From the IMG/VR virus record IMGVR_UViG_2526164631_000019: DNA of 9,834 bases; one strand, written 5' to 3'. The position numbers and the translations under genes are program-made. The first letter of the stretch is position 1; each line of letters begins with the position of its first letter. The notes beneath the pieces are model-generated. The model was not told the DNA's origin. It ran no database searches and was given only the letters and a program-made list of their open reading frames with translations. The stretch comes from a virus (lineage: Duplodnaviria > Heunggongvirae > Uroviricota > Caudoviricetes). Positions 7,514 through 9,834 of this stretch are shown here, in pieces.

Positions 7514-7539
7514 TTTTCTTAAACGTTGGTTTAGGAGAA
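7514..7539. repeat. Crossover site 1 for the invertase (hix/gix/cix-like 26-bp site)
   Basis: TTTTCTTAAACG TT GGTTTAGGAGAA. Its reverse complement TTCTCCTAAACC AA CGTTTAAGAAAA resembles the hix consensus TTCTTGAAAACC AA GGTTTTTGATAA. The central dinucleotide is at 7526-7527, 68 bp from the invertase start codon. Confidence 0.8.
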
Positions 7540-7884
7540 GCGGCAAAACGGAATGTGGGCACAGGAGATAATCAGATACCGGATATGGGAGCATTCGCTT
7601 CTGGTTCGGGATGGTTCAGGCTACCAGGTGGATATATTGTTCAGTTTGGCACTTTTGCAGGAAACACGACCCGCTTTATCAGTGGACACTTCCCTATACC
7701 ATTCCCTAATCAGCCGATGGTTTCAGTCAGTGTTATGTCTGATGCCGTTCAGTCAGACCCGTCGATTCCTGCCCCGCAGGTTTTGTCTGTAAATTTTGAA
7801 CATATCAGTAATTCAGCGTGGCGTGTGGCAACCAGTGATATCTCACAGCAATACAGATTCAGTTATATTTCGATAGGACGGTAG
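7528..7884 (+). CDS. Silent alternative tail-fibre C-terminal cassette (no start codon of its own; expressed only after inversion)
   Basis: An open frame starts at the crossover core and encodes [62 protein letters not shown]...[12 protein letters not shown], ending at TAG 7882-7884. The first codons (GGT TTA GGA GAA = GLGE) match those just inside the site in the expressed fibre gene. A tail-fibre assembly gene follows 2 nt downstream. Confidence 0.7.
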   Translation, partial: [118 protein letters not shown]

Positions 7885-7886
7885 AA

Positions 7887-8327
7887 ATGCAGAAATATAT
7901 TTTCAGTGCCGATAAAAATGCGTTTTTCCCTGTGGAGCTTAAAATCGCTTATCAGGAATCCGGCGAATGGCCCGATGATGGAATCGAAATTGACGACACT
8001 GTTGCTGCCGAATTTATGAAGGAAGCACCAGAAGGAAAATACAGAGGTGTCATCGACGGAATGCCTGCATGGATTGATATTCCACCGCCAACTCATGAGG
8101 AACAAATTGCCGCAGCCGAACTGAAAAAGCAGCAATTGATTAATCAGGTCAACGAATACATAAACAGTAAGCAATGGCCTGGTAAAGCGGCGATTGGTCG
8201 CCTGAAAGGTGAGGAACTGGTGCAATATAATTTGTGGCTGGATTATCTGGACGCACTGGAACTGGTCGATACTTCCGGTGCGCCAGATATTGAATGGCCT
8301 ACGCCTCCGGCAGTTCAGGCCAGATGA
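7887..8327 (+). CDS. Tail fibre assembly protein (Tfa), partner of the silent cassette
   Basis: 146-aa ORF with AGGA 8 nt upstream of the ATG. The C-terminus LVDTSGAPDIEWPTPP is the Tfa-type motif also found in the convergent Tfa (TDTSTAPDVIWPELP). Its position directly after a fibre cassette fits the role. Confidence 0.85.
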   Translation: MQKYIFSADKNAFFPVELKIAYQESGEWPDDGIEIDDTVAAEFMKEAPEGKYRGVIDGMPAWIDIPPPTHEEQIAAAELKKQQLINQVNEYINSKQWPGKAAIGRLKGEELVQYNLWLDYLDALELVDTSGAPDIEWPTPPAVQAR

Positions 8328-8892
8328 CATCCGGTGCGGTGCTGGTATCTGTTGCCGTCACCGCGTCAATATAATCCAGCACAGCGTTAAGTCGGGTGTT
8401 TTCTGGCTGCGTCAGCTTCCGCACGGCCTGTAATTTCAGTTGAATCAGACTGATGGAAGCCATTGCAGCATCAATCAGCGACTGGCGCTTTACTTCTGCC
8501 GCGTCTAGTGCGGCGCTATGCTGTGCCTCGGTATCCGTCACCCATTTCTCACCATCCCATTTATCGTATGGCGTTAACGGTGAAAGCGTGACATAACCGT
8601 CTTTGATGGCACCGATATAATCCACTGTAACAGCTGCGCCATTTTCGATTGAGTAAACAGTCTCATTGCGGTGGTCTTCTTCATGGCTCCATCCCTTACC
8701 CGTAAATACTGCCACTCTTCCCGGAATGTATTCGCCCGGGTCAATACCAGTGGAACAAGCGGGCATACTTACGCCAGTATTAATATATTCATCAGACCAG
8801 CCAGTATATTCATACGTAACTGCCTCATAATAAAAACAACGCATATTACCCGGTACTGTAGCCAGCCCATTTTCATCAAAAACAGGTTTCAT
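8299..8892 (-). CDS. Tail fibre assembly protein (Tfa), partner of the currently expressed fibre C-terminus
   Basis: 197-aa ORF whose ATG overlaps the fibre stop codon by 1 nt (TAATG). The C-terminal motif is TDTSTAPDVIWPELPEA. It lies inside the invertible segment. Confidence 0.85.
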   Translation of the reverse strand: MKPVFDENGLATVPGNMRCFYYEAVTYEYTGWSDEYINTGVSMPACSTGIDPGEYIPGRVAVFTGKGWSHEEDHRNETVYSIENGAAVTVDYIGAIKDGYVTLSPLTPYDKWDGEKWVTDTEAQHSAALDAAEVKRQSLIDAAMASISLIQLKLQAVRKLTQPENTRLNAVLDYIDAVTATDTSTAPDVIWPELPEA

Positions 8893-9834
8893 TATTTAGC
8901 CCTCACTAGAAAGTTAAATGCAATATTTCGTGGGCGGGTTTCTGTACCTACATTTCCACTAATTTCACCATAACGTTTAACGCTACGAGAGCTAATAGCT
9001 CGTAGTGAGGAAGGCACCCTAAGACCGGGTTCGTCCGTTTTAACTATTCCCCCGTCACCATATGTAGCCAGTATTCCTGGGTTTACTCCTTCCCGTGTAC
9101 TTCCTGCGACAAGCCCGTCCCCCGTCCACAATTCCATATTGTGTGCATGATCCATAATTGTGTGTGATTGCCCTGAAAGTAGGGTACGTCCGACATCAAT
9201 CCCGCGTCCGTCATCCCAGATACGAATGAAATCACCGCGTGCGTCAGGTAATGCCAGCGCCGGAAACACTTTCGCCAGCACAGGGTAATCAGTGGCAGAG
9301 AATTTCGCGCCGTTGAACTTCAAAAACACCATGCTGGACCAGCTATCGATTACGGTATCTGGCATTGCTGCGGACGGCCAGAAGAACGGAACGCCAATAG
9401 CTGGAGCACCTTCTCCCAAACCAAGGTAATCAAGAACTCCCTGAGTGCTGGTTTTACCAAGAATGGCACGTCCAACACTTGTCAACGCGGTTAACGCGGC
9501 ACGATCTGCCCCTGTAAAATATGGGAGTTTATCTGCTGATGTAGCAAGCTCCGCCAGCGCCGTCAGGGTGGCATCCTTCGGTTGCTTACCCGCAAGCGCG
9601 TTAGTCATGGTGGTCGCAAAATTCGGGTCATTGCCCAGCGCCGCAGCCAGTTCGTTCAGCGTGTTCAGTGCATCAGGTGACGAATCTACAAGTGCGGCAA
9701 TCGCAGCCATAACGAAAGCCGTGCTTGCGATCTGGGTACTATTAGTCCCCTGTGGCGCTGTTGGTGTTGTTGGCGTTCCGGTCAGTGCCGGGCTGTTTAA
9801 TGGTGCTTTCTTGTTCGTTTCATCCATTACCGCC
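8892..9834 (-). CDS. Tail fibre protein (P2 gpH-like constant region fused to variable C-terminal domain); 5' end beyond right edge of window
   Basis: The frame is open to the window edge, so the Met at 9827 is internal. The constant part ([22 protein letters not shown]...[38 protein letters not shown]) resembles P2-type fibres as recalled. The part downstream of the crossover site contains a tail-collar-like motif ([24 protein letters not shown]). Confidence 0.9.
   Translation of the reverse strand, partial: [313 protein letters not shown]
9411..9436. repeat. Crossover site 2 for the invertase, inside the fibre coding sequence
   Basis: TTCTCCCAAACC AA GGTAATCAAGAA is inverted relative to site 1. 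The half-site inside the segment matches the reverse complement of site 1 at 11 of 12 positions, and the core AA is identical. On the minus strand it encodes VLDYL-GLGE with the core in codon positions 2-3, the same phase as at site 1. Confidence 0.8.

Follow-up and report, generated by a model that had tools for sequence, protein, structure and literature searches.

Two tail-fibre tips, each with its own chaperone, in a probable Din-family invertible segment of a P2-like Escherichia coli prophage

How many different fibres can one tail-fibre gene supply? The question is raised by the last part (positions 7,514 to 9,834) of a 9,834-nucleotide stretch of viral DNA (Caudoviricetes; IMG/VR record IMGVR_UViG_2526164631_000019), which is called the window in the following. 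The reading frame of the tail-fibre gene H consists here of a constant part (Sc) and an expressed tip (Sv) of tail-collar type. A second, silent tip (Sv') of gp53-like type lies on the opposite strand near a gene for a serine DNA invertase, and each tip is followed by a gene for a Tfa chaperone (Tfa and Tfa'). A sequence-only reading had proposed that the two tips are unrelated and that inversion would swap adhesin tip and chaperone together. Our analysis indicates that the locus is very probably a Din-family (Pin/Gin/Cin/Hin-type) invertible tail-fibre segment in a P2-like E. coli prophage. The element is an already described kind of switch with a close, characterised homologue. Invertase-driven swapping of tips and chaperones has been known since the work on the Mu G, P1 C and e14 P segments.

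Crossover sites and the two orientations of the segment

The protein encoded immediately outside the segment matches the Pfam families Resolvase (6.2e-52) and HTH_7 (1.4e-12) and a DNA invertase family of PHROGs (1.8e-99), and the N-terminal motif YVRVSTNDQ, which includes the catalytic serine, is present. The protein shares 82.5% identity with PinE of e14 and 72.8% with Gin of Mu. The segment is therefore adjoined, as in the Din family, by a small serine recombinase with a C-terminal helix-turn-helix.

Two 26-bp crossover sites in inverted orientation flank the segment and share the same 2-bp core TT, which is the layout of a Din-family segment (Table 1). The junction motif TTGGTTTRGGAGAAG is found 2 times in the window, again inverted, versus 0.01 occurrences expected by chance. 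The fibre-side site lies within the H reading frame and codes for ..LDYLGLGE; the GLGE at the start of both tips is the translation of the inner half of the 26-bp site. The fibre-side site includes the e14 repeat TTGGTTTGGGAGAAGG (repeat from PMC12529663), and between the invertase-side sites of window and e14, 2 of 26 positions are different. The e14 sites, which are near-identical to those of the window, invert experimentally (PMC12529663; PMC4272514).

The flipped junctions were built in silico and searched against 5,426 complete E. coli genomes. Inversion in silico joins ...VLDYL of the constant part in frame to the silent tip ending in ...YISIGR, and the frame stays open. The silent cassette had been placed at 7528-7884 with 118 residues, and its re-translation indeed reveals no internal stop. 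The contiguous fusion of Sc with the gp53-like tip is found in seven chromosomes at 98.4-99.4% identity, and the same junction also occurs in four plasmids at 82-91% identity. The orientation of the window itself, with Sc joined to the collar-type tip, is found in four genomes. At the other end of the segment, the collar tip adjoins the invertase flank in 242 genomes and the gp53-like tip does so in 124. These junction and flank counts show that both states are common in nature.

In particular, the fibre fused to the gp53-like tip forms a continuous 496-aa open reading frame (ORF) ending in ...YISIGR in strains EC02 and DSM 103246, where the tip differs from that of the window by two residues. 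This is the alternative fibre that had been predicted, and it is intact. In both strains the constant region is followed by the gp53-like tip with its Tfa, and a collar-type cassette lies silent beside the invertase, which is identical in EC02 and near-identical in DSM 103246. The flipped window is colinear with both loci; the unflipped window is not. The proposed joint swap of tip and chaperone is supported by the in-silico fusion and by these natural genomes. E. coli GF31 carries the Tfa' protein of the window and an identical invertase, with the segment flipped. Inversion at the site inside the fibre ORF would exchange the C-terminus in frame, as indicated by the in-silico frame and by the natural 496-aa ORF. 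What we observed directly is the anatomy of the locus, the in-frame fusion and the family assignments, and that natural genomes contain both orientations.

Some side observations concern the same loci. The A/G difference between the inner half-sites was tried as a marker of the crossover point and rejected, since it is unlinked to the cassette in EC02 and DSM 103246. The GF31 locus (L006 5786-6088) has a gap that starts with the gp53-like tip, takes in the fibre, baseplate, lysis and head genes and reaches into the scaffold gene, and this deletion begins at or near the segment boundary. In RefSeq the 496-aa fibre ORF (L004 3117-4607 and L005 3117-4607) is split in two and recorded as an 'incomplete' phage tail protein next to a gp53-like protein of its own. 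The split appears to be an annotation artefact that hits one orientation of such switches.

Could the arrangement be a static one, with two convergent tail-fibre/tfa pairs left by duplication or recombination and a short inverted repeat that arose by chance? An inverted repeat of 18 nt with 89% complementarity is short, as such an origin would have it. However, the junction motif occurs exactly twice against the chance expectation given above, it matches the e14 sites in experimental use, and an intact invertase gene lies adjacent. Furthermore, near-identical prophages show both orientations, joined exactly at the core. We rejected the static duplication, which the population data effectively refute and which has hardly any probability left.

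The Din-family switch would work as follows. The serine invertase (6859-7458) would pair the inverted sites 7514-7539 and 9411-9436, cut both at the core TT and invert 7528-9422, a segment of 1.9 kb. Because one of the sites lies inside gene H, in either orientation the constant shaft (...VLDYL) would continue in frame into one of the tips, followed directly by the matching Tfa gene in the late operon. The sequenced orientation would yield a fibre with the collar-type tip and a TfaE-like chaperone; after inversion, it would be a fibre with the gp53-like tip and a TfaP-like chaperone. The variable N-domain of Tfa would be matched to the tip and the conserved C-domain would be generic, and a lysogen population would release particles of two receptor specificities. 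Catalysis in this strain, the dependence on Fis and enhancer, and the receptor specificities are what we infer here.

Table 1. Features of the window, ordered by position
Feature	Position	Strand	Remarks
gpD	394-1233	minus	aberrant
sheath, tube, gpE, tape-measure protein, gpU	1259-6832	plus	
serine DNA invertase, 199 aa	6859-7458	minus	immediately outside the invertible segment
putative Fis-dependent recombinational enhancer	7374-7437	minus	in the 5' end of the invertase gene
132-aa ORF	7486-7884	plus	14-codon leader (MMPVSRNLCIFLNV) from an in-frame ATG, plus silent tip
invertase-side 26-bp crossover site	7514-7539	plus	TTTTCTTAAACG TT GGTTTAGGAGAA; core TT at 7526-7527
silent variable tip (Sv'), 118 aa	7528-7884	plus	gp53-like C-terminal domain
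Tfa' of gp53-like tip, 146 aa	7887-8327	plus	starts 2 nt past Sv' stop
Tfa of collar-type tip, 197 aa	8299-8892	minus	start overlaps Sv stop codon by one base
tail-fibre gene H	8892 upward	minus	ORF 9827->8892 in the window, runs past window end
expressed variable tip (Sv), 176 aa	8895-9422	minus	divergent tail-collar type
fibre-side 26-bp crossover site	9411-9436	minus	TTCTTGATTACC TT GGTTTGGGAGAA; core TT at 9424-9423
constant part (Sc) of gene H	9423-9834	minus	continues past window end

The two tips and their chaperones

The full H protein contains the Phage_tail_fib N-terminal domain (1.8e-62) and Phage_fiber_2 repeats. When the fibre fragment was searched by sequence against solved structures, the constant part matched 9d93 (E 7e-10, query residues 34-99).

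The expressed tip had been described as a domain of about 176 residues at 8895-9423 with a tail-collar-like motif. Its length of 176 residues is correct, but GLGE starts at 9422, and the range 8895-9423 is therefore out of frame by one base. The collar motif finds its support in homology and not in the Pfam score: against Collar (PF07484) the tip reaches 18.1 bits (E 0.0026), under the 24-bit gathering threshold, but it is 43% identical to the StfE tip of e14, which itself scores 57.4 bits on Collar, and relatives at 70-76% identity do carry PF07484. The PHROG matches of the expressed tip are tail fibre and tail collar fibre families (1.7e-50 and 9.7e-50), and a weak phmmer match (E 0.002) links this region to the collar region of the T4 gp37 tip 2xgf. 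By homology, though not by Pfam threshold, the expressed tip is a divergent domain of collar type.

The silent tip matches Gp53-like_C (PF21882) with 37.4 bits (cut-off 24.9, E 3.9e-9) over profile positions 1-84 of 84, so that of the profile searches suggested for both tips the one with the silent tip succeeded and the one with the expressed tip fell short of the Collar threshold. We found 628 homologues of the gp53-like tip across Enterobacteriaceae, including Salmonella, Klebsiella, Enterobacter and Citrobacter. The search of this tip against solved structures by sequence gave nothing significant (best E 0.35).

Are the two tips related to each other? BLASTP between them detects no similarity (best E = 1.8), and the pairwise alignment that could have revealed a full-length match thus yielded nothing significant. 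Comparison of two 14-sequence tip-family alignments by hhalign aligns only the leader and the GLGE junction, and with an Neff of about 1.2 the diversity of these alignments is low, so that the negative beyond the junction is weak on its own. The PHROG family lists of the two tips show zero overlap. The claim that the tips are unrelated beyond GLGE is borne out by BLASTP, profile-profile comparison, Pfam and PHROGs alike.

Each cassette had also been said to be followed by its own Tfa gene, and both genes, directly downstream of their tips, match Caudo_TAP (PF02413, cut-off 22.1). Tfa scores 87 bits (E 1.5e-24), is 60.5% identical to TfaE of e14 and falls into phrog_105 (3.5e-80). Tfa' scores 116.8 bits (E 9.3e-34), is 56% identical to TfaP of e14 and falls into phrog_188 (1.7e-62). 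The likeness between Tfa and Tfa' is confined to the C-terminal ~80 residues (36% identity, E 1e-12).

Tip identity and Tfa-domain identity were compared across four loci in six comparisons. The identity of the Tfa N-domain follows that of the tip in five of the six. On the collar side, tip and N-domain identities are 41.5% and 41.7% in one comparison and 44.3% and 39.2% in another; on the gp53-like side they are 98.3% and 100%, 96.6% and 98.5%, and 29.7% and 24.2%. Only the collar side of phage 500465-2 departs from this, with 58.5% identity in the tip and 94.9% in the N-domain; the tip of this phage is 25 residues shorter than that of the window. The Tfa C-terminal domain is 69-99% identical in all comparisons. 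In the modular Tfa model (North et al. 2019, to the extent that it is summarised in PMC9608196), the fibre tip is bound by the N-domain, which is variable, and the assembly of trimers is the task of a helical C-domain, which is conserved. The co-variation of tip and Tfa, as judged from sequence identities, fits this model.

The two tfa genes are convergent and their 3' ends overlap by 29 nt (8299-8327). An 18-nt inverted repeat with 89% complementarity is found around this overlap, at 8237-8254 and 8363-8380, and it reflects the C-terminal motif LDY(L/I)DA conserved in Tfa and Tfa'. No terminator separates the convergent tfa genes.

Kinship with known switches and exchange between genomes

The closest known system is the P segment of e14, a cryptic prophage of E. 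coli K-12 (pinE, stfP/ycfK, tfaP, tfaE, stfE). Both loci have the order Sc-tip-tfa, then inverted tfa'-tip', then invertase. They share the crossover core with the inner half-site (TT GGTTTGGGAGAA) and the GLGE junction, and in both the Collar tip is paired with a chaperone of TfaE type and the Gp53-like_C tip with one of TfaP type, at the identities given above. They differ in their host elements, since the window belongs to a P2-like myovirus prophage whereas e14 is a lambdoid remnant. The tip alleles are divergent as well: the collar tips are 43% identical, and BLASTP detects no similarity between the gp53-like tips. Unlike in e14, the collar tip of the window stays under the Pfam threshold, and the C-terminus of the invertase extends 15 aa beyond that of PinE. 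This extension reaches into a 12-bp hairpin (AAAACCGCTAAT...ATTAGCGGTTTT) at 6840-6869, which lies between the gpU stop codon and the invertase, overlaps the invertase stop and looks like a two-way terminator.

Mu G (S/U, S'/U', gin) and P1 C (cin) are built along the same lines, with the invertase outside the segment, the crossover in the fibre gene and a constant N-terminal shaft. They too have two tips, each with its own Tfa; the sequence comparison was made with Mu. The segment is 1.9 kb long in the window and about 3 kb in Mu G and P1 C. Unlike the invertase, the tips show no BLASTP similarity to S or S' of Mu, and the gix sequence is different; Mu U' is resembled solely by the C-terminus of Tfa' (30% over 73 aa). 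Such inversions are also established for P2-like prophages of E. coli: in enteropathogenic E. coli (EPEC) E2348/69, phase-variable tail-fibre inversions with coexisting orientations were demonstrated by sequencing and polymerase chain reaction (Goldberg et al. 2014, PMC4272514). The window resembles these loci in layout, as a P2-like prophage with an invertase, inverted repeats and alternative tail-fibre C-termini. One EPEC locus has three repeats and four variants, in contrast to the two sites and two states of the window.

In the 5' end of the invertase gene two G-N13-C 15-mers (7437-7423 and 7388-7374) are spaced 49 bp and may form a Fis-dependent enhancer. The first 15-mer together with the next 11 bases (GTATCAACAAATGACCAGAATACAGA) is the same in the window and in Mu gin and one base off in e14 pinE. 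Both 15-mers occupy positions which we take to be codon-for-codon homologous to those of the hin enhancer.

The kinship with e14 also brings up a different use of the silent cassette. The 132-aa ORF (Table 1) could be made as a free protein in the sequenced orientation, mask surface receptors and block the adsorption of other phages, in which case the host would gain a phase-variable adsorption block instead of or beside the host-range switch of the prophage. This ORF is built like StfE2 of e14, with an invertase-side leader, GLGE and a Gp53-like_C domain, and ORFs of this type are annotated in many Enterobacteriaceae as 'gp53-like domain-containing protein'. StfE2 has been reported to block T2 adsorption, a result that depends on overproduction in one study (PMC12529663). 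However, the gp53-like tips of the window and e14 have no significant similarity (E = 1.0). A promoter scan gave no more matches than in shuffled sequence and none upstream of the 132-aa ORF on the plus strand, and a GGGG run abuts the ATG, which makes for a poor ribosome-binding-site spacing. In any case the leader is conserved, as it coincides in part with the crossover site and with the upstream region of the invertase gene. We regard this defence role as unlikely.

Low GC content had been taken as a sign of a horizontally exchanged module in the region 7550-8330. The region is indeed AT-rich, with 46.6% GC against 55.1% in the tail genes at 394-6832. However, GC is also low in the invertase (47.2%), the expressed Tfa (49.2%) and the expressed tip (50.2%), and in sliding windows the minimum of 41.3% lies at 8701-9000, inside the expressed cassette and not in 7550-8330. 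AT-richness is therefore a property of the whole invertase-plus-segment module and not special to the silent cassette. EC02 shares the gp53-like/Tfa' half at 96.6% nucleotide identity and has a different collar allele. The invertase, gp53-like tip and Tfa' recur at about 91-93% identity in Klebsiella and Salmonella phages, and the gp53-like/Tfa module is present in Klebsiella, Salmonella and other phages, and in plasmids. Horizontal exchange is better supported by this mosaicism across phages, plasmids and genera than by GC, which gives the weaker support.

The prophage around the segment and the function of the switch

The window comes from a P2-like (Peduoviridae) E. coli prophage. Over 6800-9834 it is 100% identical to E. 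coli O111:H2 strain 12A (NZ_CP077479.1) and over its full length 99.7% identical, and every one of the 26 differences falls within 1-3214. The H product is 554 aa at full length in this nearest genome.

The gene set of the tail cluster H-G-FI-FII-E-T-U-D is complete, but the canonical co-directional order of P2 is not found. The FI-FII-E-E'-T-U block (window 394-6832; L001 13191-20033; L002 5191-12033) is encoded on the other strand than H, G, the invertase, gpD and ogr; P2 has all of its corresponding genes in one direction. Phage 500465-2 (Gemsvirus) has the identical reversed-block order, and the divergent gpD/sheath (D/FI) junction is present in 1360/5426 E. coli genomes. It is thus a common arrangement of the lineage and no local rearrangement. 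Extra crossover-like sites, either flanking the FI-U block or for a multi-state shufflon, were sought across the window and none was found. The prophage end past ogr (L001 10984-13148) encodes a Hok/Gef toxin, a protein with a TM2 domain, and a DNA methyltransferase together with a Com-family regulator. This last pair recalls com-mom beside gin of Mu; here it lies away from the invertase.

Several points weigh against the Din-family switch as we propose it. The left inner half-site differs from the right by one base (A for G), and the left outer half-site is divergent; to be noted, the invertase-side site of e14 is equally divergent, yet functional. The strict Fis consensus is matched by the second enhancer 15-mer only, not by the first, and the spacing is 49 bp here versus 48 bp in the hin enhancer. 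AlphaFold2 models of both tips, made from the 14-sequence alignments, were unusable (mean pLDDT 33.6 and 41.3). The evidence for both orientations is drawn from comparison among genomes, not within the strain of the window. Finally, the switch may have no effect on virions in this strain, and the prophage may be defective, given that gpD is truncated or aberrant in 12A and that sheath and tube of the window have 1-nt deletions.

The last point leads to the possibility that the switch is a relic in a decaying prophage, in which genes and sites are intact but tails are no longer made, so that inversion would have no effect on host range. This concerns the present function and not the identity of the element, and it overlaps with the Din-family explanation. 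In strain 12A, gpD is annotated as a 266-aa fragment beside a partial ORF, and the window has four additional T in the gpD region (345-399) relative to 12A. A 1-nt deletion at about 1862 splits the sheath gene of the window into ORFs 1259-2191 and 1819-2442, and another at about 2564 splits the tube gene into ORFs 2442-2570 and 2567-2953. In the related GF31 locus, everything from the gp53-like tip through to the scaffold gene has been lost. However, sheath and tube are intact in strain 12A, which is fully identical to the window over 6800-9834, so the indels of the window may be sequencing errors; those in gpD, sheath and tube are either such errors or true prophage decay. Furthermore, the invertase gene, the two tips with their Tfa genes and the two crossover sites are intact without exception. 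We consider a relic doubtful, though a good deal less so than the defence role.

The locus, read as a Din-family invertible segment, offers a clean, fully resolved case of two unrelated tip folds on one shaft. Its Tfa proteins combine an N-domain that varies with the tip and a constant C-domain, a point of relevance to the engineering of phage or tailocin host range. The locus also exposes a problem of annotation, in that fibre genes in the flipped state are split and silent cassettes are called as stand-alone proteins.

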